64,000 nt of DNA from Pseudolabrys sp. (lineage in GTDB: Bacteria > Pseudomonadota > Alphaproteobacteria > Rhizobiales > Xanthobacteraceae): the NCBI GenBank assembly GCA_035626335.1, contig DASPNW010000023.1:14738-78737 (forward strand), in the 5' to 3' direction. Below are positions 1 through 16,882 of this stretch, piece by piece. How positions within the stretch are numbered: the stretch's first letter is position 1; every line of letters begins with the position of its first letter. Below the pieces are notes generated by a model. That model saw only the letters and a list, made by a program, of their open reading frames with translations, was not told the DNA's origin and ran no database searches. The translations under genes were made by a program, and so were the position numbers.

Positions 1-1
1 C

Positions 2-169
2 GAGACCGAGATTCTTCTTGCCTATGGCGGCGTATGCTTCGCCAGCAAGGTTGGCCAGCTCGCCGGCAATCATTTCCTGACGATCACATCGGATCTGGAC
101 AAGCTCGCCGCGGTCGGGCGCGCAGTACTGTGGGAAGGCGCCAAGACCATCCGTATCGAAAGCGCCTGA
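2..169 (+). CDS. DUF3830-like protein, 3' end only (runs off window start)
   Basis: Frame 2 reads ETEILLAYGGVCFASKVGQLAGNHFLTITSDLDKL...IRIESA*; TGA at 167-169. Confidence 0.7.
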   Translation, partial: ETEILLAYGGVCFASKVGQLAGNHFLTITSDLDKLAAVGRAVLWEGAKTIRIESA

Positions 170-236
170 CAGTTGAAAACAGCCGCGGCGATCTGTCATG
201 GTGACGATGTCCGGCCGCTAACCGGGGATTTCAACC

Positions 237-1433
237 GTGGATGTCGTCTTCACTGAATCGCTGAGTGCGATCTTGCGCTGGCTTCACGTCATTGCCGGCG
301 TCGCGTGGATAGGCTCCTCGTTCTACTTCATCCATCTCGACCTTAGTCTCAAAAAGCGCGCGGGCCTGCCAGAAGGCGTCAAGGGCGATGCCTGGCAGGT
401 ACACGGTGGCGGCTTCTACCAGATGATCAAGTTCTTGGTGGCGCCTGGAAAGCTGCCGGATGAGCTGACTTGGTTCAAATGGGAAGCCTACACAACCTGG
501 TTGTCCGGGTTTGCGCTGTTGGTGCTCGTCTATTACTTCAATGCCGATCTCTTCTTGATCGACAAATCCGTGCTTGCCATGAGTGCGCCGCAGGCCGCGG
601 CAATCGCGTTCTTCAGCCTGGCTGCGGCCTGGGGCGCTTACGAGGCGCTGTGCCGCTCGCCGTTAGGCAAGCACGAAGTTCCGCTGGCTCTGGTCGGCTA
701 TGTTTTCCTTGTCGCCCTCACGTACGCTTTCACTCACGTGTTCAGCGGACGCGGGGCTTTCACCCAGATCGGGGCGCTAATCGGCACCATTATGGTGGCG
801 AACGTCTTCGTCATCATAATCCCGTATCAGAAGAAGATCGTCGCCGCGATGATCGCCGGTCAAACTCCCGATCCGTTCTGGGGCACGATCGGGAAACAGC
901 GCTCGGTGCACAATAACTATCTCACCCTGCCCGTCATATTTCTGATGCTGAGCAACCACTATCCGCTTTTTTTTGGGACACGATTTAACTGGCTGATCGT
1001 CGCGATCGTGCTGCTTATCGGCCCCGTAATCCGCCATTTCTTTAATTCGCGTCACGAAGGAAGAGGGAACCCCTGGTGGACCTGGGTCGTGGCAGCTGCC
1101 GGCATGCTTGCGATTGCCTGGCTATCGGGAGCCGGTCCTTCCGGCGCAAAGAGCGGCGCGCTGCCCGCTACGCCTAAATTTGCCGATGTTCAGGACATCA
1201 TAATTTCCCGCTGCAGCATGTGTCACGCGAACGAGCCGGTTTGGGCAGGCATCGGCGCAGCGCCAGGCGGTGTGCGACTCGACGATGCTGAACAAATCAG
1301 ACTAAACGCAAGGTTGATCGAGATCTACGCTGTGCGCTCGCACGCCATGCCGCCTGGTAACGTCACAGAACTCGGTGACGAAGACCGGCGAATATTGGAG
1401 ACTTGGCTTCCCGCCAGCGCGTCGGGCAACTGA
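237..1433 (+). CDS. puuD: Urate hydroxylase PuuD (membrane domain plus C-terminal cytochrome c)
   Basis: RWLHVIAGVAWIGSSFYF, QVHGGGFY, WFKWEAYTTWLSGF, KQRSVHNNYLTLPV; heme motif CSMCH. Confidence 0.9.
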   Translation: MDVVFTESLSAILRWLHVIAGVAWIGSSFYFIHLDLSLKKRAGLPEGVKGDAWQVHGGGFYQMIKFLVAPGKLPDELTWFKWEAYTTWLSGFALLVLVYYFNADLFLIDKSVLAMSAPQAAAIAFFSLAAAWGAYEALCRSPLGKHEVPLALVGYVFLVALTYAFTHVFSGRGAFTQIGALIGTIMVANVFVIIIPYQKKIVAAMIAGQTPDPFWGTIGKQRSVHNNYLTLPVIFLMLSNHYPLFFGTRFNWLIVAIVLLIGPVIRHFFNSRHEGRGNPWWTWVVAAAGMLAIAWLSGAGPSGAKSGALPATPKFADVQDIIISRCSMCHANEPVWAGIGAAPGGVRLDDAEQIRLNARLIEIYAVRSHAMPPGNVTELGDEDRRILETWLPASASGN

Positions 1434-1565
1434 GACCCCTCTACTGCCGCGGTTATGTTCATTGGCCGTACAGTCGGAAGATCGCTAGCCTTTGCTGCTT
1501 TTAAAATCGGGCCGGAACGGGCATCGTTGCCACCTTGAAAATATAGCCGCTCTAGACACAACGCG

Positions 1566-2504
1566 ATGCCGACCTTTGAACCCACGCGCAATTTGCTGAT
1601 CATACAGACGGCACATCTTCAAGACCCTGCCGATTGGCTCGCCGTCAAACAACGAATAGACCGTGATGCGCCCGACATTGAGGTTCGTATAGCCGACAAT
1701 GGACATGCCAATTCGGTCACCGCTCGCTGGCAGGTCCGGCGTCCGTCTTTAGTATTCTCACCAATTCAATTGATTAACTTTGTCCCTCGCGGAGGCGCTA
1801 TTTTTTGCGGGCATATTCTAGGCAAGGATGAACAGCTACGTCGGCTATCTTCGATTGATATCTTGACGCCGAGGACAGCGATGCTTTCTTCGGTGCATTC
1901 CCTCGATCCTTCGGAATGGGGCGAATTCGTTGTCGTCAAGCCAAACAATTCAAATTCGAGCAAAGGGTTGAAGCTCGTTCGCTCCACCGATCTTGCCGCG
2001 CGTTACAACGAATTGACCGCACTTGCCGACGATCAAATCCTGGTTCAGCCCTACATCGACCATGCCGAAGATGGGTACCCGACTATCTATCGGGTTCTGA
2101 CCATGTTTGGCCGCGCCCTATATTGTGTCTGGAACCGGTGGGACAAGAAGCGCCCGCCACTTGCTCAAATCGCCGACGACCCGTCTGGGGTCATCGCCAC
2201 AAATGACAATTCGATGGGTCAGGTCCGTTCGCTCTGTAATGATCCCGGGATCGTTGCTCTCGGTGAACGTGCTCACGAAGCGTTCCCAGAATGCCCCGTA
2301 CTTGGAGTCGACATTATTCGCGACGTCCAAAGCGGACGACTCTATGTTCTGGAGGTCAACCCGCACGGTAACGTGTGGCATTTGTCGTCGCCATTCGCAA
2401 AAAAGGTTGATCCAGAATATGTGCGCGCTCGTTATGCCCAATTCAATGCGCTGGATCGCGCAGCCGACCTCTTGATCCAAAAAACTCGCAGCGAGGCCCG
2501 GTGA
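1566..2504 (+). CDS. Divergent ATP-grasp fold protein (RimK-like C-terminal half)
   Basis: VVVKPNNSNSSKG, LVQPYID, YRVLTMFG, GVDIIRD...YVLEVNP (E-x-N). Confidence 0.65.
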   Translation: MPTFEPTRNLLIIQTAHLQDPADWLAVKQRIDRDAPDIEVRIADNGHANSVTARWQVRRPSLVFSPIQLINFVPRGGAIFCGHILGKDEQLRRLSSIDILTPRTAMLSSVHSLDPSEWGEFVVVKPNNSNSSKGLKLVRSTDLAARYNELTALADDQILVQPYIDHAEDGYPTIYRVLTMFGRALYCVWNRWDKKRPPLAQIADDPSGVIATNDNSMGQVRSLCNDPGIVALGERAHEAFPECPVLGVDIIRDVQSGRLYVLEVNPHGNVWHLSSPFAKKVDPEYVRARYAQFNALDRAADLLIQKTRSEAR

Positions 2505-2624
2505 AGATCGATACCTGTCGCCGCCTCGTTGACGATTTCGATCTTCGAGGGCATGCTTTTACTATCTTGATGATGTTGCCAAGCTTTGTGGATTTCATAA
2601 CCGGATTAGCTAGCGGGCTTTGAA

Positions 2625-3134
2625 ATGTCCGAGGTCATGTTGCGCAAGTTGTCAGACAATGACCTGCCGCGGGTTATCGAAATCCTGTCGTACTGGAATA
2701 TGGCTCCGGTCGAGCCAACAGCGACAGTGCCTGTTGTCGAAACTACGGGGCTCGAGCCTGAGCGTACTACGATTGCAATCGTTCGGCATAAGATAGTGGG
2801 CGTCGCGAGTTACATCGTGTTGGACAACGGCTGGGCCGAAACGGTAAGCCTTGCTGTCGATCCGGCTTGGCGCGGCCACGGCATTGGTGAGAAATTACAA
2901 ATCGCCCGCCTCAAGGAAATGAAGAAGATCGGAATACAAAATGTGAAGACTGAATCTGATCGACCCGAGGTCATTGGTTGGTATATCCGAAAATTCGGCT
3001 ATCGGGTCGCAGGTACCTCACCAAAAAAACATGATTTTTGCAGACACGACGTGACGCACTGGACGGTGCTCAATCTCGATCTTCGAAAATGGCACCCGCG
3101 CGGGGCAGTTACTGCAAGTTCGGCAAATCCGTAG
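2625..3134 (+). CDS. GNAT family N-acetyltransferase
   Basis: SLAVDPAWRGHGIGEKL acetyl-CoA motif A; 169 aa. Confidence 0.85.
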   Translation: MSEVMLRKLSDNDLPRVIEILSYWNMAPVEPTATVPVVETTGLEPERTTIAIVRHKIVGVASYIVLDNGWAETVSLAVDPAWRGHGIGEKLQIARLKEMKKIGIQNVKTESDRPEVIGWYIRKFGYRVAGTSPKKHDFCRHDVTHWTVLNLDLRKWHPRGAVTASSANP

Positions 3135-3172
3135 CCATAGCCGTCGGAACAACCCTGTGCACGCACTGTTGC

Positions 3173-3200
3173 ATGTCCGCCTTGGGTCAAAAACGGACGT
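3173..3200. repeat. Palindromic intergenic repeat (GTCCG family)
   Basis: ATGTCCGCCTTGGGTCAAAAACGGACGT, 6 bp from the SBP stop codon. Confidence 0.85.
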
Positions 3201-3206
3201 GGCAAC

Positions 3207-4190
3207 CTATTCGATCACCTCGTCAGCGCGGGCGAGCAGCGACGGCGGCACGTTCAGGCCGAGTGCTTTCGCGGTCTTGAGATTGATGACCAATTCGTAT
3301 TTGTTCGGAGTTTGCACCGGCAAATCAGCGGGCTTTTCACCTTTAAGAATGCGGTCTACGTAGCCCGCCGCTTGCCGATACTGATCGACGCGATCCGGCC
3401 CATAGGACATCAGACCGCCAAGCGTCACAAAGATGCGGTCCACGTAAACGGTAGGCAGGCGATATTTTGCTGCAAGAGCAACAATCGACTTACGATGGAC
3501 GATCGCCCCGCCCCCTTGCCCAACGAGCATGGCGCTCGAGGGGCGCGCGAAGGCCGCCACCGCGCTTTCGAGGTCGGCGGGGCTGCGAAAGTTCATCACA
3601 GCCAACTCCAAGTGAAGCGAGGATGCAACGGTTTGGATGGCACTGACCTGACCGACACCGGCCGCTGTCGCGTTATCGCGAATTACCGCTACGCGCGTTA
3701 CACTTGGTGCGATCTCTTTGAGAAGTTCGAGCCACTTCCCGCCGATAGAATATTCAAAACTGGCAAATCCCGTGGCGTTGCCCCCCGGCCGCGACAAACT
3801 GTCGATATAACCAGCAGCGACCGGATCGGGGACAGTTGCAAATACGATTGGTATGCTGCTCGTCGCTTGAAGCAGAGGGCCCGTTGCCGAACTCCCCGGT
3901 GCCAGAATGACGTCGGGCGCAAGTGCTACCAATTCGGCGGCGAATTTGCGCGTCTGCTCGGTATTTCCCTTTCCCCAACGCTTCTCAATTTGGACATTTC
4001 GCCCTTCGACCCATCCCAGTTGGACGAGCCGCTCCGTAAACGCCTTCATGCGGGCTTCATACTCTGGATCATCAGCCCCGCTTGGCAACAGCACGCCGAC
4101 GCGCCGCACGCGCTCATTTTGCTGCGCACGCACCACAACCGGCCAAGTTGCAGCCCCGCCAAGTAGCGCGATGAATTGGCGCCGTCGCAT
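3207..4190 (-). CDS. ABC transporter substrate-binding protein (ABC_sub_bind type), orphan
   Basis: MRRRQFIALLGGAATWPVVVRAQQ leader; ends INLKTAKALGLNVPPSLLARADEVIE; start moved to MRRR. Confidence 0.9.
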   Translation of the reverse strand: MRRRQFIALLGGAATWPVVVRAQQNERVRRVGVLLPSGADDPEYEARMKAFTERLVQLGWVEGRNVQIEKRWGKGNTEQTRKFAAELVALAPDVILAPGSSATGPLLQATSSIPIVFATVPDPVAAGYIDSLSRPGGNATGFASFEYSIGGKWLELLKEIAPSVTRVAVIRDNATAAGVGQVSAIQTVASSLHLELAVMNFRSPADLESAVAAFARPSSAMLVGQGGGAIVHRKSIVALAAKYRLPTVYVDRIFVTLGGLMSYGPDRVDQYRQAAGYVDRILKGEKPADLPVQTPNKYELVINLKTAKALGLNVPPSLLARADEVIE

Positions 4191-4238
4191 GTAGCCCCCC
4201 TCATGCAAGGCTTAAAGGCTAGCACTTTGCGGCCCCTC

Positions 4239-4267
4239 ATGTCCGCTATGGGTATAACGCGGCTCAT
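4239..4267. repeat. Degenerate palindromic repeat (GTCCG family)
   Basis: ATGTCCGCTATGGGTATAACGCGGCTCAT. Confidence 0.65.
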
Positions 4268-4287
4268 GCGACGCGGCAAAACGACCA

Positions 4288-4428
4288 TTATTCGATCAGG
4301 GTGTCGGCGCGCAGCAAGAACTTTTCAGGAATCGTGAGGCCGATAGCTTTTGCGGTCCTTAGATTGATCGCTAGCTCAAACTTCGTAGGCTGCTCAATTG
4401 GAATATCTTTTGGCTTTTGGCCTTGCAA
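4288..4428 (-). pseudogene. C-terminal 46-codon fragment of an ABC_sub_bind SBP
   Basis: [46 protein letters not shown]; no upstream coding sequence, 5' break abuts a repeat. Confidence 0.85.
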
Positions 4429-4429
4429 A

Positions 4430-4454
4430 GTCCGCTTTGCCCAATAGCGGACAT
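4430..4454. repeat. Palindromic intergenic repeat (GTCCG family)
   Basis: GTCCGCT-TTGCCCAAT-AGCGGAC-AT, perfect 7-bp arms. Confidence 0.9.
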
Positions 4455-4461
4455 CACTGAC

Positions 4462-5877
4462 CTACTGTGCCGCGACCTTTTCGGCGTCCGGCAACTTCCA
4501 CACCTTGTCGAAGAATTCCTTCTTCGGCCCGTAGAAACGCGCCATCAGTTCGAACTTGCGAGCGGGATCGGTGGGGACCCAATTCGATTCCTTTCCCGCC
4601 GGAGCCTTTGGTCCGAAATAGACGTCGATTGAGCCATCGGCGTTCTTCTGAATCTCGGGAATTTGCGATGAGCGGCTCGCGCGCGGCATATTCTTAATTA
4701 ATGCGTGTGTCTCCCGGTCGTAGGCGGTCACCGACCAGTATTGGTCGACCGGCACGTTTGAGGGCACGTTGAGCCGATAGGTCTTGGCTCCGTCGAAGGA
4801 GTCGCCGTCCTTGTCCCGGATTGAGATCGAATAGAACTGTCCCGCTCCAAGCCGTTTGAGGCCTATAAAGGCATAACTGTAAGCCATCCCACGTTCGTCG
4901 ACGGGATACACATTTATGTCGGCATAGCCATCCTGCATCACTTTGATCAAGTCCGGAGGGGCCGGTGCCGTCCAGCGACTTGCAGCCGAGAAAAAGGGCG
5001 GGAGGCCCGCGTCATATTTGGCCTCGAGAAACGCGTGTGCTTCTCGCGCCGCGGAAGTAAGCAACGTCTTAGTCGCGTCACTGGGCGTAAAGGGCTTTCC
5101 CTTTTCAATTCCGAGGGTCTTGAGCTGGTCGATCATCGCGCGGTCGCGTTGCAGCCATGGCTCGTTCTGCACCATGCGGTCGAGATTGTTGAAGAAGCTC
5201 GCGTCGTAGCGAATCGTGGAGTCGAAGTCGATGTCCTTGACGTCCGTGAACACCGTTGGTGGCGGATTGGCGGCCTGCGCCAGTGGATAAATTTTCATCC
5301 TTTTGCCGTATGCGATTGCTGCATCGACATCGGCCGGGCTGTGGCTCTTGAGGTTCGCCCGGAACAGCATATAGCCGCCGAATGTATCGGACTGCCGTGC
5401 CGCGTAGCCTTTTGGCGGAGTCCGCTTGTAGCCCGGCGGCAAGATCAGAAGCTTGACGCCCTTTCCCTTGTCGATGCCGAACCGGCCGGCATCCTCAAGC
5501 GGCATCTGCCACACCGTGACGATATTGGCGTTGAACGAGCCGCCGGCGTCTGCGGGCGGCAAGTCGAGTACGATGGGGCCGTCCTTCGTGTTGTAGAAGG
5601 CCATGAAGTAGAGCGCGTCCGGGTTCGGCGTCAGCGTTTGGTTTTTAGAATCGAGTGGCCTGCCCCAATAGATGACCTGATTCACCTTGCCGTTCGTCTT
5701 GCTGAGCATTTCCTGAACCATCAAATCATAGTTCACGACCGGCATGCCCCAGACGACAGCTTCAAACGCGCGCCGCTCTAAAATTCGGCGGTTCAGTTCA
5801 TCAGGAGATGGGGTCTGCGCGTGTGATGACACCGCTGCGAAGATCAAGATTAAAGCAGAAATCAACGCGTTTCTCAT
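4462..5877 (-). CDS. DUF1254/DUF1214 domain exported protein
   Basis: Signal peptide MRNALIS...; LTPNPDALY; QYWSVTAYD; NWVPTDP...FELMARFYGP; RBS GGAGGGG. Confidence 0.85.
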   Translation of the reverse strand: MRNALISALILIFAAVSSHAQTPSPDELNRRILERRAFEAVVWGMPVVNYDLMVQEMLSKTNGKVNQVIYWGRPLDSKNQTLTPNPDALYFMAFYNTKDGPIVLDLPPADAGGSFNANIVTVWQMPLEDAGRFGIDKGKGVKLLILPPGYKRTPPKGYAARQSDTFGGYMLFRANLKSHSPADVDAAIAYGKRMKIYPLAQAANPPPTVFTDVKDIDFDSTIRYDASFFNNLDRMVQNEPWLQRDRAMIDQLKTLGIEKGKPFTPSDATKTLLTSAAREAHAFLEAKYDAGLPPFFSAASRWTAPAPPDLIKVMQDGYADINVYPVDERGMAYSYAFIGLKRLGAGQFYSISIRDKDGDSFDGAKTYRLNVPSNVPVDQYWSVTAYDRETHALIKNMPRASRSSQIPEIQKNADGSIDVYFGPKAPAGKESNWVPTDPARKFELMARFYGPKKEFFDKVWKLPDAEKVAAQ

Positions 5878-5966
5878 GGGGCACCCCCCTCCTGTGCGCA
5901 GGAAAGGTAAAGCGTCTAATCTTCTAAGATGCGCGAGCGGCGGTCGAGTTGGACCCAAGTCCAATA

Positions 5967-6040
5967 ATGATCCGCTTTACCCCCAAGAGCGGACATGTAG
6001 GTGCAATCCGTGGTGCCTGCTAAGGGCCAATAGCGGACAT
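5967..6040. repeat. Compound (two-unit) palindromic repeat
   Basis: TCCGCTTTACCCCCAAGAGCGGACAT-gtag-GTGCAATCCGTGGTGCCTGCTAAGGGCCAATAGCGGACAT. Confidence 0.85.
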
Positions 6041-6094
6041 TTCCAAAGGGTGAACTACCTCACTCAAAAGCGACGCGCGCACCGTTCACGGAAA

Positions 6095-6622
6095 TTAAAC
6101 CTCGTCCTGTCGCGAACGAATGGGTGCCGGTACCCGGCGAACCGGACGTTTGCCACTTTTCATATCAGCGAGTGATCCGTTAGACGGGAATCTGTTTGAT
6201 CCAAATCTCAGAACCAGAACGGCAAAAGACAACAAAAGAATTGCTCCCGAAACAATGAGGATATCCATCCCTGTTCTATGCTCTGCGCTAACGAGTTCTA
6301 TGAGAACTCGAGCCAAAGCGGTGATGGCAATATAAATCAGGTAACGGACTGGCAGCCTTGTCGTTTTGAAGTAAATTCCAACCATTGCGCCGATTTCTAG
6401 ATAGATAAACAGGAGCAGGAGATCTCCGAGATCGGCTCGCCCTCGATGCACCATGCCCAGGAAAGCCCCGACAGCGGACCACACGGTGGTCGCACCAAGC
6501 GCGAACAGCGCCAGATAATGAAAAGTATCGACCAACAGCGTTCCGAATGCATCAGAGAAAGTCCTCAGGTCCGCGTGAAGACTGGAGGCGAGCCGGTTAA
6601 ATCGGTGTGTGTATTCGGACAT
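6095..6622 (-). CDS. Phosphate-starvation-inducible PsiE family membrane protein
   Basis: DLLLLFIYLEIGAMVGIYFKTTRLPVRYLIYIAITALAR; RBS GGAGAA. Confidence 0.85.
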   Translation of the reverse strand: MSEYTHRFNRLASSLHADLRTFSDAFGTLLVDTFHYLALFALGATTVWSAVGAFLGMVHRGRADLGDLLLLFIYLEIGAMVGIYFKTTRLPVRYLIYIAITALARVLIELVSAEHRTGMDILIVSGAILLLSFAVLVLRFGSNRFPSNGSLADMKSGKRPVRRVPAPIRSRQDEV

Positions 6623-6664
6623 AAGCATTTCTCCCATCGGAGCCTGCATCGTTTAAATGACGCT

Positions 6665-6709
6665 GTGCGGTGCAATCCGAGATCTCTGCCAAGGGCCAAA
6701 AGCGGACAT
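6665..6709. repeat. Repeat unit, 34/40 identical to 6001-6040
   Basis: GTGCAATCCGAGATCTCTGCCAAGGGCCAAAAGCGGACAT at 6670-6709, 2 bp from the SBP stop. Confidence 0.85.
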
Positions 6710-6711
6710 GC

Positions 6712-7707
6712 CTAGTCGATCACCTGGTCTGCGCTCACCAGGATTGAAGACGGCACCTCAAGGCCAAGCGCCTTGGCGGTTTTGAGATTGACCGCAATCT
6801 CAAATTTGGTTGGCACCTGCACAGGTAGATTGGCCGGTTTCTCTCCGCGCAAGACGCGATCAACATAAGGCGCTGCGCGTCGGACGATATCCGCGAGATC
6901 GGGACCGTACGAAAGCAAACCACCCGCAACGACAACGTCGCGCCAGGGATAAACCGCCGGTACGTGGTTGCGGGCTGCCAGTGATATCGCCGTTTCTCGA
7001 TTGATGAATAAGAAAAAGTCCGCCATTGCGACAAAGCCACTTCCAGGCTCGCGCCCCAGATCGGTTATTACCGCTTCAAGCTCGGCAACACTGTGTATAG
7101 GCGCCGCAATCGGCCGCACATTGAGGGACCGCGCGGACGCTTCAAAATCAGGCATGTAATACTTGCCGTGTCCGGGCGCCGTGTCCGGATCGAAGATCAT
7201 GGCTGCCCGTGTCACTGAGGGTGCGATCTGCTTGAGCAATTCCATCCACTTGCCGCCAATCGAAGACTCGGAATTATGAAACCCCGTGATGTTTCCGCCG
7301 GGATGGGACAGGCTCGCGACAAAGCCTTCACCGACCGGATCGGAGACAATAGCGAAGACAATTGGAATTGTACGCGTTTCGCGTTGAAGGGCGGCGGTGA
7401 CGGGTGTTCCGAATGAGAGAATGACATCCGGCTGAAAGGCTACCAACTCCTTTGCAAACGTTCGCATGCGATCAACGTTGTCACCGGCCCAGCGAACGTC
7501 CGTGTGTGGCTTGCGACCTCCGCTCCAGCCCAACTTCGCGAGCTCATCGTCGAACAAAGAAAGCCAACTTCTCGCCCTGGCGTCAGTCTCATTGAACGCC
7601 ATAAGGACGCCGATACGTCGTGCACGGTCCGTCTGTTGTGCATGGGCGACAACAGGCCAGACGGGGGCGGCACTGCCGAGGAGTTTGATGAAATCGCGCC
7701 GTCTCAT
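6712..7707 (-). CDS. ABC transporter substrate-binding protein (ABC_sub_bind type), orphan
   Basis: MRRRDFIKLLGSAAPVWPVVAHAQQ; ends VNLKTAKALGLEVPSSILVSADQVID. Confidence 0.9.
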   Translation of the reverse strand: MRRRDFIKLLGSAAPVWPVVAHAQQTDRARRIGVLMAFNETDARARSWLSLFDDELAKLGWSGGRKPHTDVRWAGDNVDRMRTFAKELVAFQPDVILSFGTPVTAALQRETRTIPIVFAIVSDPVGEGFVASLSHPGGNITGFHNSESSIGGKWMELLKQIAPSVTRAAMIFDPDTAPGHGKYYMPDFEASARSLNVRPIAAPIHSVAELEAVITDLGREPGSGFVAMADFFLFINRETAISLAARNHVPAVYPWRDVVVAGGLLSYGPDLADIVRRAAPYVDRVLRGEKPANLPVQVPTKFEIAVNLKTAKALGLEVPSSILVSADQVID

Positions 7708-7770
7708 TGCCGCCCCAGAAGTCATAAGGCGCGCATCGTATCGATTCAAACCGGTATACCGGAAGGGGGG
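7708..7770 (-). promoter_or_regulatory. Conserved promoter/leader module
   Basis: CCCTTCCGG-N18-TACGAT-N27-ATG; same layout before genes starting at 19121, 38777, 61383, 62933. Confidence 0.6.
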
Positions 7771-7791
7771 CTTTGGAAGAGGCCGATTTCC

Positions 7792-7818
7792 ATGTCCGCT
7801 TTGGGCCAAAAGCGGACT
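7792..7818. repeat. Palindromic intergenic repeat (near-consensus copy)
   Basis: ATGTCCGCTTTGGGCCAAAAGCGGACT. Confidence 0.9.
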
Positions 7819-7833
7819 TGGGCCCGTTTTCGG

Positions 7834-8091
7834 TTAGCGGCGGTTTCCGTAAAGCGTATAGTTCGGACAGACGGCCACATCAAAACCGGTGGGTGTTCCG
7901 CCCGGTGTGTAGCCCATTTCGGGATGGCAGCCGCGCGGAACCGGGTTGCAGCCGACGACGGTGCAGGCAATCTGCGGCTGTTCAGCAGCGGCAGCCTTCG
8001 TGTGACGCTTTTTGTGCGCAGGCGCCGCGCTGGCCGGCATCAACGCAAGAGCAAGCACAACGGCCGAAGTAAGGGGTACGATTGTTTTCAT
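7834..8091 (-). CDS. Small secreted Cys-containing hypothetical protein
   Basis: Signal peptide MKTIVPLTSAVVLALALMPASA; CTVVGCNPVPRGCHP; RBS AGAGGA. Confidence 0.7.
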   Translation of the reverse strand: MKTIVPLTSAVVLALALMPASAAPAHKKRHTKAAAAEQPQIACTVVGCNPVPRGCHPEMGYTPGGTPTGFDVAVCPNYTLYGNRR

Positions 8092-8202
8092 CGCGATCCT
8101 CTGAGCCTTTCTGCAAGGCAATGCCATCAAAATCGCCGCCTTTCATTCATAGGTAAATGGTTCGCAGTTCTCGGGCGTGTATTCATGACGCCTCGCAATG
8201 AC

Positions 8203-8571
8203 TCACCGCGCGGCCAAGTTGATGTTGCCCATCAACCAGATTGCCAAGGCCGCAACGAGCCCTGCGCTGGCGAACACTCCCGATACTACGGCAGCGCTAA
8301 ACAGAATCACCCCTAATGCATACGCGATCCTATCGAGTGCCCATCGTATCACTCCGATGAAGCGGCCGAACACCCAATAGAATGCATACAGGAGGAGGAG
8401 GAGCACCAGAACGAGAACTACAATCTTCAGGATCGGAGCGCCCCCGAATTGCGTACCAAGAAGCCGCGAGATCTGGCTGATGCCCCATAAGCATCCGAAT
8501 ACAATCACGTCGACGAGCCAGCCAAATCCCTGCTTAAGCCATGCACCAAACTCCCGAATCAGGTGCTCCAT
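8203..8571 (-). CDS. Hypothetical membrane protein
   Basis: Several hydrophobic stretches; start uncertain. Confidence 0.5.
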   Translation of the reverse strand: MEHLIREFGAWLKQGFGWLVDVIVFGCLWGISQISRLLGTQFGGAPILKIVVLVLVLLLLLYAFYWVFGRFIGVIRWALDRIAYALGVILFSAAVVSGVFASAGLVAALAIWLMGNINLAAR

Positions 8572-8800
8572 ACGCAAGTCCCTTGTTTGGACTGCCCAGC
8601 CACCAACGCTACGGCAACGAATTTGTTTCAAGCGATGTTCCCGCAGTTTGCAGCCATTCACGGCGACTTGATTGCGGGTACAAAAACCTAATTAGCGACA
8701 CCCCGAGACATTTTTGCGGATGCGCGCGAGATTTCCCAAGACACGGCGGCATAGCCTGCCGTAGCTGGCGTGCCAATGCCAGCGGCGGGCCGGTCAACGA

Positions 8801-10024
8801 TCACCCAATGAGAGCCGCCAGCGCACTCGCCACATCAATCGACATGACGGCGATCTGAGCCATGACAAATGCCTGCCCCTGTGTCGTCGTCAGGCTGTCT
8901 ATTTCCTCGGTCGTGAGGCCGGCGATGGCATCCGTGCTTAGACCGGGGATGCCACTCGTACTCGACAATGCGCTGAAGTTGGTCGTCGTCATTCCGGCGA
9001 TCTGCGCACTCGTGAAGCCGCCGGCCTGGGTTGACGTGAAAGCGGCGATTTCGGTCGTCGAAAGGCTATTGACCCCGGCCGTTGTCAAGGCGCCGATGTC
9101 CGCCGCGGTCAGAGCACCAACCTGGGTCTCAGTCAGGTTAGTGATCGTGGTGGTGTTTAGCCCGACAACCTGCACCGGCAACAACAGTGCGAGCGCCAAA
9201 GCGTCAAGATTGTCTATCGACAGACCATTGAGCTGGGCCCAATAGAGGCCTTGCACCTGCGCCGCGGTCAGCGCCGCTACCTGCGCGGTGGTGAGATTGT
9301 TGAGCACCGTCATGTTCAGCGAGCCGATCTGGCCCGCGGTCAGTGCACCGGCCTGCGTGGTAGACAGGCTCTGCAGCTCGGTCGTGGTCAGCTGAGCGAT
9401 CTGGCTGGCATTTAGCGCCGCCACCTGCGTGGCCGCCAGTGCCGCCACCTGCGTGGTGGTCAGATCGCCAATCACTGTCGTGCTCAGGCCGGCGGTCTGC
9501 CCGGCGCCGAGCTTGGTGACGTCAAGCGCGCCCAGGTTGTCGATCGACAGCGCATTGAGCTGGGTCGTGGTCAGGCCCTGCACCTGCACCGTGCTCAGCG
9601 CCGCCACCTGCGTGGTGGTGAGATTGTTGAGGACTGTCGTGCTCAGCGAGCCGATCTGGGCCGCGGTCAGCGCGCTGGCCTGCGTGGTCGACAGGTTCTG
9701 CAGTTCCTCCGGCGACAATGCGCCGATCTCGCCGGCGGTAAGCGCGCTCACCTGCGTCGACGTCAGCTCGGTGATCTGGGTGGTGGTGAAAGCCTGTATC
9801 TGCGCCTCGATCAGACCGCCCATGGTCGTCGAGGAGATCGCCTGAAGCTGCGCCGTCGCCAGGTATTGCAGGGCGGTCGATGTGAGCGCATTGACCTGAT
9901 CCGCATTCAGGACCGCCAGCTGGGTCGTGGAAAAAGCCGCGATGCTGGTGGTTTTCAGCGAGCTGAAGGTTGTCGTCGAAAGACCGGCAATTTTTGCGGC
10001 GCTGATGAAGGGAATAACAGACAT
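8801..10024 (-). CDS. Thr/Ala/Leu-rich octapeptide-repeat protein
   Basis: About 45 units of L-[ST]-x-x-Q-[IVL]-x-[AG]; internal duplication at 327-nt spacing. Confidence 0.85.
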   Translation of the reverse strand: MSVIPFISAAKIAGLSTTTFSSLKTTSIAAFSTTQLAVLNADQVNALTSTALQYLATAQLQAISSTTMGGLIEAQIQAFTTTQITELTSTQVSALTAGEIGALSPEELQNLSTTQASALTAAQIGSLSTTVLNNLTTTQVAALSTVQVQGLTTTQLNALSIDNLGALDVTKLGAGQTAGLSTTVIGDLTTTQVAALAATQVAALNASQIAQLTTTELQSLSTTQAGALTAGQIGSLNMTVLNNLTTAQVAALTAAQVQGLYWAQLNGLSIDNLDALALALLLPVQVVGLNTTTITNLTETQVGALTAADIGALTTAGVNSLSTTEIAAFTSTQAGGFTSAQIAGMTTTNFSALSSTSGIPGLSTDAIAGLTTEEIDSLTTTQGQAFVMAQIAVMSIDVASALAALIG

Positions 10025-10217
10025 TCAGGCAACCCATTCCGACTGGCTGACGCGGTCCCGCCGCGGGACGAATGTAAGAATGCCGGGATGGGTGGAGTTT
10101 CACATTGATGCATTTATTGATTCTGACGATTTTTGGCTTTGGATATTGGTAGTTAAAGCGTTCAAAAAAATTCCGTCAAATTCAATCGCCCCGATTAGGA
10201 ATTCGTTCATGCCTAAC

Positions 10218-10239
10218 GTCGTTTTGGGCCAAAAGCGAC
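10218..10239. repeat. Variant palindromic repeat
   Basis: GTCGTTTTGGGCCAAAAGCGAC shares the TTTGGGCCAAAAGCG core. Confidence 0.6.
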
Positions 10240-10264
10240 CTTCTCTTCTCTTCTCTTCTCTTCT
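10240..10264. repeat. Simple sequence repeat (CTTCT)5
   Basis: Five perfect pentamer copies directly after the palindrome. Confidence 0.9.
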
Positions 10265-10301
10265 GGCATCAATAAAAAAGCGAATAACAATGCGTCAACG
10301 G

Positions 10302-11237
10302 CTAGCGGTATGCGATCAGCGATTGCAACTTGGCTTTCAACCTTGGCCGCCACTCGGCAAATTGTAGCGGCAGTGGCGCCGCGGGGATTTCGGTGGAGCT
10401 GTCATAGGGCAGCAAACGCACGCCCGGTTCAGGTGCATATTGATTAAGGGCGTCGCCCTGTCCTGCCTCCAGGCGGTCGATCGCTCGCATGAGCACGGCT
10501 TCGGTAACCTTCTCTTGCCGCGCAAGGCAGAGATTCCCCGCGCAGGAGTGATAAAGGTAGGTCTGGCCATAAAATCTCAAAACCTTTTCATCGTGCTCCG
10601 CCAAAGCACGAAGCAAGACCGGCGAAAATACAGCGACATGCGAGAACGTTGGAAACATCAGTGAATATTGCAAGCCACGAAGCAAGCGCACCCCAACCTG
10701 ATAGTTACTTACGATGTGCCGCTTAGAATCGATGTGACGGATAAGCGCGATCAGCATATCCAGATCAACAGCGTTCTGAGTAAAGAATGTCGCCGCATTA
10801 TGGGGAGCGGGCGAAATGGCGTGGGTCACACCAGCCCGACGGAGCAGGATAACTTCGCGACCAAAAGCATAGCCGGTGGTCAGGCTTTCGGCTGGAAAAT
10901 CGAATACAAGCCTGGCGGGGTCGAACACGAACACATCCGCGTCGAGCCAAATCACCCGTTGATAGCCGGCATCCAATCGCTCGCGCGTCGCGACTAGACG
11001 GGCGAGGTTGGTGATGGCTTGGGGATTCTTGCTGCCACGCGACAGATATTCCGGACCGCACAAATTGTAGAATTCGTCGCCCGCCAGCGAGTACTCGTAG
11101 TCACGCAACGCCGCCCATTTCTGCACGCTGTGCAGGCAACGCTGTATCCAGGCAGGGATGTTTTGGTTACGGAATGTCTGGATAACGATCGTATCCGATC
11201 GTCTTGACGGGCTCGACAAAAAACAACTCCTTTTCAA
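10302..11237 (-). CDS. Hypothetical protein, possible GT-A-like nucleotide-sugar transferase
   Basis: RVIWLDADVFVFD (DxD); start uncertain. Confidence 0.5.
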   Translation of the reverse strand: MKRSCFLSSPSRRSDTIVIQTFRNQNIPAWIQRCLHSVQKWAALRDYEYSLAGDEFYNLCGPEYLSRGSKNPQAITNLARLVATRERLDAGYQRVIWLDADVFVFDPARLVFDFPAESLTTGYAFGREVILLRRAGVTHAISPAPHNAATFFTQNAVDLDMLIALIRHIDSKRHIVSNYQVGVRLLRGLQYSLMFPTFSHVAVFSPVLLRALAEHDEKVLRFYGQTYLYHSCAGNLCLARQEKVTEAVLMRAIDRLEAGQGDALNQYAPEPGVRLLPYDSSTEIPAAPLPLQFAEWRPRLKAKLQSLIAYR

Positions 11238-11314
11238 GACCTGGCGAGTGGATCAATAAGCCGCGCGTTTGGCTCCGAACCGGTCAATCAAATCTCACAC
11301 CGTAATTCAATGCA

Positions 11315-11341
11315 ATGCCCGCTTTGCGCCGTTAGCGGAGT
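11315..11341. repeat. Degenerate palindromic repeat
   Basis: ATGCCCGCTTTGCGCCGTTAGCGGAGT. Confidence 0.6.
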
Positions 11342-11471
11342 GCATCACCTGTCAATCCGGTCGCATTTTTTTCGTTTGGTGCGCGAAAGCCATATAGCAG
11401 CGCCCACCAGTACGAAAACTATCACGAGCTTCAGGCCCATTTTTTTGCTTGTCGTACCTGGCACGCCAACA

Positions 11472-11645
11472 TCATGGCTGATTTTTTTTAGCCGTGTCTC
11501 TCTCAAATTCCAGTCTAAACCTAGTTTGCTCTTCTTCCAGAAGTCTCAAGATCTCCCTTCTTTTGGCGGCGCTTGTTCTTCTGTTTGCAAGAGCGCGGTA
11601 GAACGCAACATTGCTTCGGCTGAAGAATCTTTCCAGGCCGGTCAT
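11472..11645 (-). CDS. Small hypothetical protein
   Basis: MTGLERFFSRSNVAFYRALAN...ILRLLEEE resembles small rhizobial helical proteins. Confidence 0.4.
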   Translation of the reverse strand: MTGLERFFSRSNVAFYRALANRRTSAAKRREILRLLEEEQTRFRLEFERDTAKKNQP

Positions 11646-11863
11646 GCCGAGCCGAGAGCACAGCACGTTCTGCTGATTGATTTTTGTACTTTTCCCGCCC
11701 TTTCGGGCAGCTCGTTCTTTTGTGGGCGCGCCCATTCGTGTTCCCCAGGATGCGCCCGCCAACGATCTCAAAACGTTACTGCTCCAGGGAACCTGCGTTA
11801 ACGGAGGGTAATTTTTTAAATTACGCCAGCGTGCGATATGTCCGCGTGGCTAAAATGAGCGGC

Positions 11864-12223
11864 TCAAGAGAGCACATTATGCGCCAGTCGAGTGATAACG
11901 CCCGGACTGACATCGTGGGTTTGTGTGTGCTGACGTGAGAGGCGTTCGGGTCCAAAGGCGTCATTAAGACCGTTGAGCAGCCATACCCCGCTCGTCACAA
12001 GAAAGATCAAAAACAGAAATACCACCGCATTTGCTCTCATGCGGTCCCGGTAACTCGCGTCGGACCAAAACTCTTCTCCTCGGTCTCGCGACTGTCGCAA
12101 ATTGTGCATTGGCTGGAACGTCAACGAACGAGACGACCGGAGCTTTTTCTCCCGTCGATAAAACCCCAGATTTACAACGTTGGAACAATCTGCGAAGGGC
12201 GACGCCGGTCGACGGGCACGCAT
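11864..12223 (-). CDS. Small membrane hypothetical protein
   Basis: YRDRMRANAVVFLFLIFLVTSGVWL single TM segment; start uncertain. Confidence 0.5.
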   Translation of the reverse strand: MRARRPASPFADCSNVVNLGFYRREKKLRSSRSLTFQPMHNLRQSRDRGEEFWSDASYRDRMRANAVVFLFLIFLVTSGVWLLNGLNDAFGPERLSRQHTQTHDVSPGVITRLAHNVLS

Positions 12224-12421
12224 TTTATCCTCACTGGCATTTTATCCAGCGACCGCGCCCCGCGAAATAACGCCATCGTCCGGTATTTGTTTCGGACGTA
12301 GACACCCCTACCCCCGCTCGGGGTCAGGTTGAAAATAAATCCTGCATAAATTTTAGGCGAGGAACTGTCTGACTTATTTGTAACTTGATGGAACACAGGT
12401 TTTGGCCTGGCGGAACGTTGG

Positions 12422-13681
12422 ATGGATATCGATATCACGAACGGACCGCCTGCCGGCCGGCCCAGGAGAGATTTTTTGCTTTGGATCCACGCGTCACGGC
12501 TGCGCAGCGCGAAGGGTATCCTCGGCCTGACAGCGATGCTGCTTATCGCCGGATATGTCGGCTGGCGCTACGCCTCCGCGAGTCAAACCGATGCCGGCAA
12601 CCGCCAGGCAAAGGCGCCGGCCGCAATTCCCGTCACGACCCAGTCTGTCCAGAACGCCGACTTCCCTGTGTATCTCAACGGTCTCGGCACGGTGCAACCG
12701 TACAATACGGTCACCGTGCGGAGCCGGGTCGATGGCCAGGTGATCAAGGTCGGCTTTCGTCAGGGACAGATGGTGAATGAAGGCGATCTGCTGGTGCAGA
12801 TCGACCCTCGTCCATTTCAGGCAGCCCTCGAACAGGCGCAGGCCAAAAAGGCGCAGGACGAAGCCAATCTGAAGAATGCACAACTCGATCTCCAGCGCTA
12901 CAGCACCCTTGCCGTTCAGGATTATGCCTCAAAACAACAGCTCGATACGCAACAGGCGAAGGTCGACCAGCTCGTCGCCCAGATAAAAGGTGACCAAGCC
13001 GCGATTGATAACGCCGGAACGCAACTCAGCTACGCGAGCATCCGCTCTCCGTTATCCGGCAAAACCGGCTTTCGTCTCATCGATCCCGGCAACATCGTCC
13101 ACGCGAACGACCAGACGGGTATCGTAACGATTGTGAAGCTTCAGCCGATTTCCGTGGTCTTCACAGCGCCGGAGGCGAACATCGGACAGATCAACAGCGC
13201 GTTGGCTTCCGGAACCGTACCCGTTATCGCGTTGTCGTCGGATGGCACAAAAACTCTTGCCAATGGACATCTCGCGCTGGTCGACAACCAGGTCGATCAG
13301 GCCAGCGGTACAATTCGCATGAAGGCCACGTTTCAGAACACCGACAATGCGTTGTGGCCCGGACTCTCCGTTGCAACACGGCTCCTGGTCGACACAAGAA
13401 AAAACGTTCTCGTGATTCCCAACGATGCAATCCAGCATGGGCCGAACGGGCTCTTCGCCTTCGTTGTAGGCAAAGACAATAAAGTGACGACACACGATAT
13501 CAAAGTGGCCGACGAAGGTGCCACCCAGGCCGTTGTCCTCGATGGCCTGACCAATGGCGACCGTGTTGTGACCTCTGGCCAATATCGCTTGACGGAGGGC
13601 GCGATCGTTGACCCGCATACTGCAAACACACCGGCTTCGGCCGACAAGCAAGCCGCCAACACCTCGCAAAAAGCTCACTGA
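12422..13681 (+). CDS. RND efflux periplasmic adaptor (MdtA family)
   Basis: GLGTVQPYNTVTVRSRVDGQ, IRSPLSGKTG, NQVDQASGTIRMKA, LWPG. Confidence 0.92.
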   Translation: MDIDITNGPPAGRPRRDFLLWIHASRLRSAKGILGLTAMLLIAGYVGWRYASASQTDAGNRQAKAPAAIPVTTQSVQNADFPVYLNGLGTVQPYNTVTVRSRVDGQVIKVGFRQGQMVNEGDLLVQIDPRPFQAALEQAQAKKAQDEANLKNAQLDLQRYSTLAVQDYASKQQLDTQQAKVDQLVAQIKGDQAAIDNAGTQLSYASIRSPLSGKTGFRLIDPGNIVHANDQTGIVTIVKLQPISVVFTAPEANIGQINSALASGTVPVIALSSDGTKTLANGHLALVDNQVDQASGTIRMKATFQNTDNALWPGLSVATRLLVDTRKNVLVIPNDAIQHGPNGLFAFVVGKDNKVTTHDIKVADEGATQAVVLDGLTNGDRVVTSGQYRLTEGAIVDPHTANTPASADKQAANTSQKAH

Positions 13682-13683
13682 CC

Positions 13684-16856: not shown

Positions 16857-16882
16857 GTGCGCCGAGGGCCATTAGCGGACAT
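16857..16882. repeat. Repeat unit (right-arm type)
   Basis: GTGCGCCGAGGGCCATTAGCGGACAT. Confidence 0.7.

Follow-up and report, generated by a model that had tools for sequence, protein, structure and literature searches.

Is an array in which short palindromes alternate with functionally unrelated genes a gene-capture system, or is it a crowded patch of a dispersed repeat? This question is raised by positions 3173-8091 of the window (the whole 64,000-nt stretch analyzed here, from Pseudolabrys sp. assembly GCA_035626335.1, contig DASPNW010000023.1, positions 14,738-78,737 of the forward strand), whose host is a Pseudolabrys-type soil alphaproteobacterium of the Xanthobacteraceae. Seven copies of a palindrome of about 28 bp (consensus ATGTCCGCTTTTGGCCCAAAGCGGACAT) were found to alternate with six minus-strand genes or gene fragments, in agreement with the positions and genes reported in the initial annotation, which had read the layout as an integron-analogous system of gene capture and shuffling. 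The distances from stop codon to repeat, recomputed from the sequence, were 6, 20, 7, 54, 2, and 14 nt; the first five are as previously given, while the last had been listed as 15. A palindrome is present in all six consecutive intergenic spaces of the array compared with roughly 5 of about 55 elsewhere in the window. The arm ATGTCCGC was counted 16 times versus 3.25 expected, with no shuffle as high as 16, and the paired arrangement GTCCGCT-N8-16-AGCGGAC was observed three times versus 0 expected.

The minus-strand units of the array were identified as: (i) SBP1 (3207-4190), an orphan ABC-type substrate-binding protein (PF04392, Pfam E 9e-44) that is the one member of its 90% identity cluster; (ii) a 50-codon C-terminal fragment of PF04392 (4288-4440, Pfam E 1.9e-7, profile positions 245-291 of 293), which is truncated at its 5' end at a palindrome and whose homology, when aligned with four paralogues, begins at the palindrome edge; (iii) a DUF1254/DUF1214 protein (4462-5877, assigned by Pfam) with a signal-peptide-like N-terminus; (iv) a PsiE-family membrane protein (6095-6622, Pfam E 9e-21); (v) SBP2, a second PF04392 binding protein (6712-7707, Pfam E 3e-40); and (vi) an 85-aa cysteine-containing protein (7834-8091) with a signal-peptide-like N-terminus and no Pfam match, whose 90% cluster has 53 members, several of them named Pseudolabrys sp. 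Relatives of most of these genes were found in other surroundings, including a DUF1254 orthologue of 89% identity that is followed by three palindromic units (locus L001), PsiE homologues of 80-88% identity in three other contexts, SBP2 orthologues of 85-87.5% nucleotide identity in two (L133 and L150), and the 85-aa gene in L143-L148, with a tandem duplicate in L145. These other contexts of genes that are 85-93% identical may in part reflect paralogy rather than movement. The binding-protein genes carry a conserved leader of their own, lying between their start codon and the palindrome upstream; for SBP2 it is found at 7720-7765 on the minus strand (CCCCTTCCGGTnnnCCGGTTTGAAyCGmTACGATGCG), and the motif also precedes the paralogue at 60409-61431, as well as binding-protein genes in L001, L133, L150, and L051. 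This leader is possibly a promoter or operator.

The palindromic units themselves were found to be unevenly preserved. All lie on the minus strand, and within 3-38 kb of the window 11 units scored at least 10 bits in an HMM scan. Strong hairpin folding (z -2.6 to -4.8) was retained only by three units of the array and one outside it: the unit at 3173-3200, whose forward sequence on the minus strand is ACGTCCGTTTTTGACCCAAGGCGGACAT and which separates the convergent genes GNAT and SBP1 (-17.2 kcal/mol, z -3.5); that at 4428-4454, 7 nt past the DUF1254 stop and abutting the truncated binding-protein fragment (HMM score 21.1, -14.1 kcal/mol, z -2.6); the best-preserved unit of the window, at 7792-7819, 14 nt past the stop of the 85-aa gene (HMM score 31.6, -18 kcal/mol, z -2.6); and a copy at 22195-22222, 44 nt past the stop of a minus-strand binding-protein gene (z -4.8). 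Half of the window copies have lost the hairpin and fold no better than shuffles, namely the degenerate unit at 4239-4267 (HMM score 8.4, z -0.95), an A-variant with a divergent right arm at 6670-6709 (2 nt past the SBP2 stop, z 0.05), a copy 3' of and antisense to a plus-strand RND pump gene (16857-16882), a copy about 10 nt past the stop of the PF04392 paralogue at 18129-19163 (18093-18119), and a partly decayed copy at 38240-38266 (z -0.16). The remaining pair is a head-to-tail doublet (5967-5996 and 6003-6040, z -1.4), in which the minus strand reads the A-variant (6040-6003), a linker, and a B-type unit (5996-5967), the same order as in the arrays of relatives; the unit at 6670-6709 is 85% identical to 6000-6040 over 41 nt.

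Comparison with other loci indicates that these palindromes very likely constitute a lineage-specific, genome-wide REP-like family of this Pseudolabrys-type alphaproteobacterium. The basic unit is a hairpin-forming palindrome of 28-29 bp, ATGTCCGC-loop-GCGGACAT; its stem spans 11 bp and its loop 6-7 nt, and in most cases a conserved 17-nt linker (..TAGTTGCACCGCAC) comes after it. In Pseudolabrys-like relatives, one to five such units are arrayed head-to-tail with a 45-bp period and the same conserved 17-nt linker, and these arrays are found in the intergenic spaces of tandem, convergent, and divergent gene pairs. Strong units were detected in 27 Pseudolabrys-like loci, and 121 other loci (1.44 Mb in total) contained none. 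Units typically lie a few nucleotides past stop codons, a placement that is most consistent for the PF04392 binding-protein genes with their many paralogues. Among about 40 arrays, 22 were located behind a gene of the same orientation, 4 ran antisense to both adjacent genes, 7 lay between convergent genes, and 7 between divergent ones. Each locus was found to keep its units on one strand regardless of gene direction (11 of 11 in the window, 26 of 26 in L051, 17 of 18 in L144, and 20 of 21 in L150). The stem displays no covariation, and its right arm is better conserved than its left; the lack of covariation indicates that the copies share their sequence by descent. The stretch at 3173-8091 is a locally dense patch of the family, situated where the genome is rich in binding-protein genes and poor in synteny, and is not a cassette array.

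The initial annotation had suggested that relatives be compared for reordering at the repeat boundaries, and such reordering is supported. Synteny ended 0-4 nt from a palindrome end in six comparisons, which are all the breaks that could be examined between relatives; as the relatives are metagenome contigs, some of these breaks could be assembly chimeras at repeats, which is unlikely where the shared repeat is a lone unit of 28 bp. Breaks of this kind separate L144 from L147 (99.5% identity), L144 from L145 (93%), and L039 from L041 (97%), and the window from L152 at 3200, from L144 at 7792, and from L150 at 7823. For the window, homology with L152 (87% at the nucleotide level) stops exactly at 3200, the left boundary of the array; the 3173 palindrome has its orthologue in the first unit 3' of GNAT in L152, which does not have SBP1, and thus is not SBP1's own site. 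Blocks of gene plus palindrome recur in different contexts for both the 85-aa gene and SBP2. The homology of the former with L144 and L145 runs from 8102 to 7792, ending at the palindrome end, and its palindrome is conserved in L144. That of SBP2 with L150 extends from palindrome to palindrome (7823 to 6693, the latter in the loop of the 6670-6709 unit), while with L133 it begins at the ribosome-binding site and ends at 6695 in the same loop. Breaks were found at either end of the unit, which fits recombination inside shared repeat homology and not one fixed cut site. Unit number was also found to differ where the genes are the same, with two units in L144 versus one in L143 and L146, and two in L152 versus one in the window; the first difference is a 45-nt indel of linker plus unit without target-site duplication. 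Such gain and loss independent of the genes had been named in the initial annotation as ordinary REP behavior that speaks against gene capture. The array itself displayed no rearrangement among same-strain assemblies, as L035-L038 and L149 are all collinear.

The synteny breaks at palindromes, together with the binding-protein fragment cut at one, make the repeats look like substrates of recombination by which blocks of gene size are shuffled. Together with the 3' ends of the binding-protein genes, which are conserved, the repeats would provide dispersed homology or fragile hairpins, at which ectopic or unequal recombination and replication slippage could occur; gene-sized blocks would be duplicated, deleted, and reordered as a result, with gene fragments left over. 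Shuffling of this type is expected of dispersed repeats that serve as recombination substrates, and a site-specific system is not required. Transcription of the units as part of 3' untranslated regions is probable, and their one-strand polarity suggests that new copies arise through single-strand DNA and an enzyme of the RAYT/HUH type.

Alternatively, the palindromes could be functional 3' RNA hairpins which mainly end or stabilize the upstream mRNA and are repeated through selection for that role. Most copies do lie 2-54 nt past stop codons, the intact ones fold at -14 to -18 kcal/mol, and such a role has been proposed for REPs elsewhere (PMC3733652). However, the units have no T-tract, none of nine terminator-like sites in 2500-8700 coincides with a palindrome, and orientation tracks the DNA strand and not the gene, with 7 of the about 40 arrays in divergent promoter regions and 4 antisense to both neighbors. 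Compensatory covariation is absent, many copies are decayed, and the occurrence at many loci of 28-mers that are nearly identical and have conserved linkers requires copying, not convergence; we consider this explanation quite unlikely.

The integron-analogous reading, in which each ORF with its palindrome is a cassette and a site-specific recombinase encoded elsewhere acts on the folded palindrome, we regard as very improbable. It accounts for the strict alternation with co-oriented, unrelated genes, for the synteny breaks at palindrome ends, for blocks found again elsewhere (from ribosome-binding site to palindrome end for the 85-aa gene, from palindrome to palindrome for SBP2 and L150), and for the tandem duplication of gene plus palindromes in L145. 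Against it, the sites are genome-wide, occurring in divergent spaces and antisense to neighboring genes; unit number varies while genes are constant; the 3173 palindrome flanks GNAT in a relative without SBP1; homology of SBP2 with L133 begins at the ribosome-binding site and not at the upstream palindrome; breaks fall at either unit end; half of the window copies no longer fold; and binding-protein genes carry a leader of their own. Pfam matched no integrase or transposase family among the 30 window ORFs scanned, and none appears in the Pfam table of L035 (window positions 1-15878 and about 5.5 kb to the left), and metagenome contigs contained no excision joints. Integron cassette arrays and CALINs (attC clusters that lack an integrase) likewise combine unrelated ORFs of one orientation, each with an imperfect palindrome behind it. 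Unlike these, the Pseudolabrys array has no IntI gene among the ORFs scanned and no extrahelical bases, its site is 28 bp compared with roughly 57-141 bp for attC, and its sites are dispersed over the genome in all intergenic contexts, with tandem unit arrays and some genes with leaders of their own. No RYYYAAC...GTTRRRY core pair was found in any of the seven intergenic spaces, which bears out the earlier report that attC GTT/AAC cores are lacking, and Alphaproteobacteria are reported in integron surveys to lack integrons. Of the proposed capture and shuffling, the reordering at repeats stands, while a dedicated integron-like system is rejected, and nothing indicates one.

That the palindrome arms are terminal inverted repeats of a MITE, with units or arrays mobilized as non-autonomous elements by a DDE transposase, is extremely improbable: the repeat is dispersed, abundant, and lineage-specific, and every unit or array starts with ATGTCCGC and finishes with GCGGACAT, but the units are just 28 bp, the arrays are head-to-tail with a fixed linker, the 45-nt presence/absence difference has no target-site duplication, and no transposase was found in loci whose gene tables were inspected. 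Operator sites of a dimeric regulator controlling the binding-protein genes and their neighbors would fit the near-perfect 28-bp dyad, its better conserved right arm, and the tight association with PF04392 genes, but are hardly credible given sites 3' of genes and not at promoters, up to five copies per array, a copy density far exceeding any regulon, and copies that decay.

Among known repeats, MIRU-VNTR loci consist of head-to-tail units of 40-100 bp at many intergenic sites with strain-variable unit number, and the Pseudolabrys arrays are similar in their tandem intergenic layout and variable number; MIRUs are, however, non-palindromic and operon-oriented, whereas the Pseudolabrys units are hairpins whose orientation tracks the DNA strand. 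The palindromes are best classified as a new family of REP/BIME-like type. Like REP, BIME, and REPIN elements, the family consists of short (20-40 bp) extragenic palindromes of high copy number that are lineage-specific, mostly near the 3' ends of upstream ORFs, and often clustered, and published REPs lie mostly at most 20 bp from such ends, again often clustered and lineage-specific (Di Nocera et al. 2013, PMC3733652). CGTC-tagged REPs are common in Alphaproteobacteria and have no known transposase, a trait shared here, and an 8-bp outer stem starting with AT is described for them (PMC3733652) and is found in the Pseudolabrys units as well; a few Pseudolabrys copies (window 3173, L001, and L039) have ACGTCC as their head, while most have TGTC inside the stem, and the unpaired CGTC or GTAG head of the published super-families is not consistently present here. 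Differences also include the loop of 6-7 nt and total stem of 11 bp, the placement of nearly all units of a region on one strand, and clusters that are head-to-tail as a rule and share a conserved 17-nt linker; REPs typically cluster as inverted, head-to-head pairs, with negligible head-to-tail dimers (PMC3733652).

The nearest analogue is the NIME arrays of Neisseria, in which 20-bp dRS3 inverted repeats alternate with RS spacers; a role in the exchange of neighboring genes has been suggested for these arrays, either by homology or with the help of a recombinase, and none were observed outside Neisseria (Bentley et al. 2007, PMC1797815). Both systems are intergenic arrays of a short inverted repeat and spacers, with strain-variable unit number at syntenic sites and recombination end points clustered in or beside the arrays. 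The sequence and host class are unrelated, the Pseudolabrys spacer is a single conserved 17-nt linker in contrast to RS families of 50-150 bp, and the Pseudolabrys palindrome has no known targeting phage or recombinase. The dispersal of the repeats also shows in public data: read depth spikes 5- to 60-fold at them in peat and wetland metagenomes, and 716 public 'hypothetical proteins' are translated palindrome arrays.

A palindrome with the core GTCCGC...GCGGAC, often present as ATGTCCGC...GCGGACAT, was found by reading positions 2800-8500 and by scanning the whole window. Within the 3173-8091 stretch it was detected at 3173-3200, 4239-4267 (degenerate), 4428-4454, 5967-5996 together with 6003-6040 (a pair), 6670-6709 and 7792-7819. 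As described in the initial annotation, these palindromes alternate with single genes or gene fragments on the minus strand, a layout confirmed by sequence reading, window scans and Pfam, the last of which assigned (i) a PF04392 substrate-binding protein (SBP1, 3207-4190) and a 50-codon C-terminal fragment of this family (4288-4440); (ii) a DUF1254/DUF1214 protein (4462-5877); (iii) PsiE (6095-6622); and (iv) a second PF04392 protein (SBP2, 6712-7707). The remaining gene encodes an 85-aa protein with a signal-peptide-like N-terminus (7834-8091, minus strand). Distances from stop codon to repeat were 6, 20, 7, 54, 2 and 14 nt, matching those first reported except for the last (15). The motif was far above chance in the window, where ATGTCCGC occurred 16 times versus 3.25 expected and the full dyad 3 times versus 0 expected, and further copies were located outside the stretch at 16857, 18093, 22195 and 38240. 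About half of the window copies no longer have a hairpin, with fold z-scores of -2.6 to -4.8 for those at 3173, 4428, 7792 and 22195 and of approximately 0 for those at 4239, 6670, 16857, 18093 and 38240. No Rfam 15 family was detected at gathering score in the entire window.

Related loci were reached through homologues of PsiE, SBP2, the 85-aa protein, DUF1254 and the GNAT gene that is convergent with SBP1 across palindrome 3173-3200, and the repeat was found to be much better preserved in these relatives than in the window. There, the unit is a 28-29-bp palindrome, ATGTCCGCTTTTGGCCCAAAGCGGACAT, with the loop variants TGGCCC, TGACCC, TGGCAC and TGGGGGT; it is usually followed by a conserved 17-nt linker (CCCTAGTTGCACCGCAC and variants), and 1-5 such units are joined head-to-tail into arrays with a 45-bp period. 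The units are near-perfect 28-bp dyads devoid of extrahelical bases. In an alignment of 48 units the right arm, AAAGCGGACAT, was clearly more conserved than the left, with G24, G27 and C29 invariant, a bias to which the way the units were collected may have contributed. Stem covariation revealed no compensatory signal beyond that of shuffles; thus, the copies are alike by descent.

An HMM of the palindrome built from 27 units detected strong copies in 27 Pseudolabrys-like loci (Xanthobacteraceae, Hyphomicrobiales), at 1-24 strong units per 10 kb of these loci, and in none of 121 other loci (1.44 Mb) from Bradyrhizobium, Hyphomicrobium, other Alphaproteobacteria and other phyla. A prior description of similar sequences in Bradyrhizobium was considered and dismissed, as five loci of that genus hold only chance 8-mer matches and no strong unit falls outside the Pseudolabrys-like set. 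NCBI assigns the name Pseudolabrys sp. to cluster members of small proteins encoded in the window. When translated, the array matched 716 distinct public 'hypothetical proteins' of 57-125 aa (MSAFGPKRT...MSAFGGKAD...MSAFDPKRT), which are almost certainly spurious ORF calls on palindrome arrays; hundreds of database entries would thereby be translations of this repeat, and the arrays are likely to cause breaks or wrong joins in short-read assemblies of these organisms. Together, the HMM and translated matches indicate a repeat that is abundant, dispersed and specific to one lineage. A search of the plasmid collection did not recover the array. A genome scan with the DUF1254 protein returned 34 loci, none syntenic, with the repeat in only one of them (L001), and a metagenome scan with the urate-oxidase neighbor returned 80 loci, mostly ≤78% identical, none with a second window gene and hence uninformative on synteny. 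One further relative (L047-L049) has seven PF04392 genes within 15 kb but is almost without repeats, a single short related hairpin, ATGTCCGCTGGTGACGGACAT, being located after one of the stop codons; related genomes therefore vary greatly in repeat load.

The placement of approximately 40 arrays from non-redundant loci was tallied from the gene tables of the loci and our own gene calls for the window. The arrays were found 3′ of a co-oriented gene (22), in tandem spaces antisense to both neighbors (4), between convergent genes (7) and between divergent genes (7), such that 33 of the ~40 lie in tandem or convergent spaces, usually 2-90 nt from the stop codon. Since the loop is asymmetric, every unit has an orientation, and nearly all units of a locus were found to occupy one DNA strand regardless of gene direction (11 of 11 in the window, all minus; 26 of 26, 17 of 18 and 20 of 21 in the related loci L051, L144 and L150, respectively). 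Orientation flips were seen beside rearranged blocks, in L039 and the IMG/VR viral contig L157, and in L152, a relative that lacks SBP1. This one-strand polarity hints at a strand-specific process and is not a property of ORF-plus-site cassettes. GC skew was negative in all eight 8-kb bins of the window (-0.006 to -0.042), whose plus strand is probably the lagging strand throughout; skew and unit orientation agreed in the window, L001 and L039-L041 but disagreed in L144-L147, and the loci as a whole are too short for a leading-strand test.

Comparison of close relatives revealed that unit number changes without gene change. Two units follow a binding-protein gene in L144, whereas only one is present in L143 and L146 (99% identical), and the extra sequence is exactly linker plus unit (45 nt) after GCGGACAT; likewise, two units follow GNAT in L152 and one in the window. 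This is ordinary REP (repetitive extragenic palindrome) or tandem-repeat behavior, and repeats varying independently of genes is the pattern that the initial annotation had itself set against a cassette system. Synteny was also found to break at the palindromes. Homology between L144 and L147 (99.5% identical) ends at a unit's last base, that between L144 and L145 (93%) ends one base past a unit, and L039 and L041 (97%) are shared only from a unit's right end onward. The window and L152 are 87% identical over 1747 nt up to 3200, the outer end of palindrome 3173-3200, beyond which L152 has a second unit and HU genes in place of SBP1. Gene-sized blocks were delimited similarly: the 85-aa gene is shared with L144/L145 (88%) from the ribosome-binding site to the palindrome end (8102 to 7792), and SBP2 is shared with L150 (85%) from palindrome to palindrome (7823 to 6693) and with L133 (87.5%) from the ribosome-binding site into the loop of the downstream palindrome (7719 to 6695). 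The SBP fragment at 4288-4440 starts where palindrome 4428-4454 ends, and comparable binding-protein fragments were found next to palindromes in L145, L150 and L151. In L145, from one Pseudolabrys MAG, the 85-aa gene is tandemly duplicated (5093-5350 and 5568-5837), both copies being ~93% identical in nucleotides to the single gene of L144 and each followed by two palindromes, with a 7-codon binding-protein C-terminal remnant immediately before the second pair. These comparisons support the suggestion that rearrangements happen at the repeats. As for the anticipated reordering at repeat boundaries, breaks do coincide with palindrome ends; however, both ends of the unit are represented among them, and the upstream limit of the SBP2 block shared with L133 is a ribosome-binding site rather than the palindrome. 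Breaks at either end are expected if the repeat itself is the shared homology of ectopic or unequal exchange, and they indicate no single fixed cleavage position. The same-strain versions of the locus, in five other assemblies (L035-L038 and L149), are uninformative on rearrangement because they are 99.96-100% identical and collinear; the locus was also found in peat and wetland metagenomes, and a sister strain with one unit of the window array more or fewer was not encountered. In a separate case, a GAF/PAS histidine-kinase gene was inverted between two contigs of one population (L039 8121-10663 versus L040 1396-3931), with a palindrome 10 nt from one end of the gene and reversed-orientation palindromes ~140 nt past the other.

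In general kind, the repeat is a REP/BIME-like element with an unusual array grammar and polarity, and it apparently represents a REP-like family, not described before, in Pseudolabrys, a genus of soil and peat. With REP, BIME and REPIN elements it shares (i) short imperfect extragenic palindromes in many dispersed copies, counted here in loci; and (ii) a preference for the 3′ side of genes (33 of ~40 arrays; cf. PMC3733652). Published REP super-families carry a GTAG or CGTC head at the hairpin foot, whereas the consensus left end of the unit alignment is nnnATGTCCGC, with ACGTCC in few copies only, and GTAG or CTAG is present in the linker, 11 nt from the following stem. Published clusters are also alternating or inverted dimers, in contrast to the head-to-tail units on one strand per locus described here. 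The Y1 transposase (PF01797) was absent from the gene tables inspected (L035 and the ~20-kb pieces of relatives), and CGTC-type REPs of Alphaproteobacteria likewise have no known transposase (PMC3733652). The nearest behavioral analogue is the NIME array of Neisseria, which is built of short inverted repeats with intervening spacers, differs in its number of units and harbors recombination end points; a role in promoting the exchange of neighboring genes has been proposed for these arrays, which are said not to have been seen outside Neisseria (PMC1797815). The likeness, which consists of repeat-plus-spacer arrays, variable unit number at syntenic sites and recombination end points at arrays, is in behavior only, as the sequences are unrelated to dRS3.

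The REP-like family is old enough that orthologous sites still carry it at ~87% nucleotide identity. Its arrays both lengthen and shorten, and relatives differ in gene order at the repeats. The palindromes and the highly conserved 3′ ends of many PF04392 paralogues, a conservation that accounts for the metagenome depth spikes at 3170-3403, would serve as scattered stretches of homology and as DNA prone to form hairpins. Recombination between such sites, unequal or ectopic, together with slippage during replication, could then give rise to block duplication (as in L145), block deletion (as in the SBP fragment) and reordering of gene-sized blocks, which would explain binding-protein-rich regions with an array after nearly every gene (window 3-8 kb, L051 and L150). 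New units may have originated through a single-strand HUH/RAYT-type enzyme, which is compatible with the one-strand polarity and with additions directly 3′ of GCGGACAT; slippage between identical right arms is equally compatible with both. A stronger version, which we consider improbable, is that a strand-specific ssDNA enzyme (RAYT/HUH-, IS200/IS605- or IS110-like) acts on the palindrome, cuts at the hairpin foot, seeds units directly 3′ of GCGGACAT and moves or exchanges DNA between hairpins, resulting in dedicated mobilization of palindrome-bounded gene modules. If so, a dedicated mechanism would shuffle gene-plus-palindrome modules, notably orphan PF04392 genes, and would be the functional counterpart in Alphaproteobacteria of NIME- or integron-type gene exchange. 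Its fixed-linker head-to-tail arrays, one-strand polarity and coincidence with synteny breaks make the family usable as a natural system in which to study the part of short palindromes in changing gene order and in enlarging a family of many binding-protein paralogues.

The initial annotation had instead read the 3173-8091 stretch as an integron-analogous capture system. An integron has the tyrosine recombinase IntI with attI and Pc beside its array, and a CALIN has at least two attC sites. These sites, R''(RYYYAAC)-L''...L'-R'(GTTRRRY), span ~57-141 bp with extrahelical bases and stand in one array, each after a co-oriented, usually promoterless ORF. The units described here are 28-bp dyads with neither attC cores nor extrahelical bases, and the RYYYAAC/GTTRRRY pair occurred in none of seven intergenic spaces, as the initial annotation had noted for the cores. 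Rather than forming one array, the sites are scattered over the window and 27 related loci, and they are also found in promoter regions, antisense to genes and in tandem arrays. No match to Phage_integrase or to another recombinase or transposase family was detected by Pfam among 30 window ORFs, the others being assessed by eye only, and the Pfam annotation precomputed for L035, which spans window 1-15878 and 5.5 kb to its left, contained no integrase or transposase. Palindrome 3173 is orthologous to the GNAT-side palindrome in L152, and contigs from four metagenomes support the window gene order. Apparent palindrome-palindrome 'joints' in metagenome contigs were discounted as excisions, as their 15-24 nt of linker-like sequence shows them to be other genomic arrays aligned on window copies. 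Furthermore, PF04392 paralogues share a leader, CCCCTTCCGGTnnnCCGGTTTGAAyCGmTACGATGCG, which follows the upstream palindrome, precedes the start codon by ~45-60 nt and contains a CCGGnnnnCCGG dyad; it was identified at 7720-7765 and 61414-61470 (both minus strand) and in L001, L133, L150 and L051. This leader may be a common promoter or operator, and genes with their own conserved leader are unlikely to be promoterless cassettes. With dispersed sites, no attC cores, no recombinase among the ORFs scanned, tandem arrays and genes with their own leaders, the integron-like mechanism was rejected. An apparent integron-like system in Alphaproteobacteria is thereby removed and a documented REP-like Pseudolabrys family put in its place, with the unusual traits of fixed-linker head-to-tail arrays, one-strand polarity over tens of kilobases and a near-perfect match with synteny breaks among close relatives. 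A MITE has terminal inverted repeats, a target-site duplication and a related autonomous element. This class was excluded, as the 45-nt presence/absence site lacks a target-site duplication and no transposase was seen in the loci inspected; a CRISPR array was excluded by spacers that are one conserved 17-mer and by the lack of cas genes, and intrinsic terminators by the lack of any hairpin with a T-tract and by the finding that none of nine terminator-like sites in 2500-8700 lies at a palindrome.

The palindrome was also found in seven viral contigs, in six of which it lies near a contig end. The sequence at these ends appears to be of host origin (the ends of binding-protein genes and a tRNA-like sequence), and the contigs resemble prophage-like regions flanked by host DNA; nothing seen in the seven pointed to a phage that targets the palindrome. 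One of them, L157 (7051 nt), carries a large serine recombinase, DUF2924, terminase large subunit, DUF5681 and ParB-methylase in one block flanked by palindrome arrays of opposite orientation (98-171, plus; 6722-6837, minus), and this block looks like a prophage-like element between host repeats. Other features were recorded in the window itself. The region at 34400-38800 has low coding density and small ORFs, including a CAP-domain protein (36608-37108), RHH_4 (37379-37732) and DUF3551 (38316-38888), with no integrase found. A cysteine-rich-repeat protein (PF00839, 46831-47904) is encoded near a Rap1a-like immunity-protein domain (PF18602, E 1e-9; 48072-48629), and a 407-aa protein (8801-10024) has nine or more ALTTAQ repeats (PF20080, E 5e-49) and a third-position GC of 0.80, the maximum of its region.
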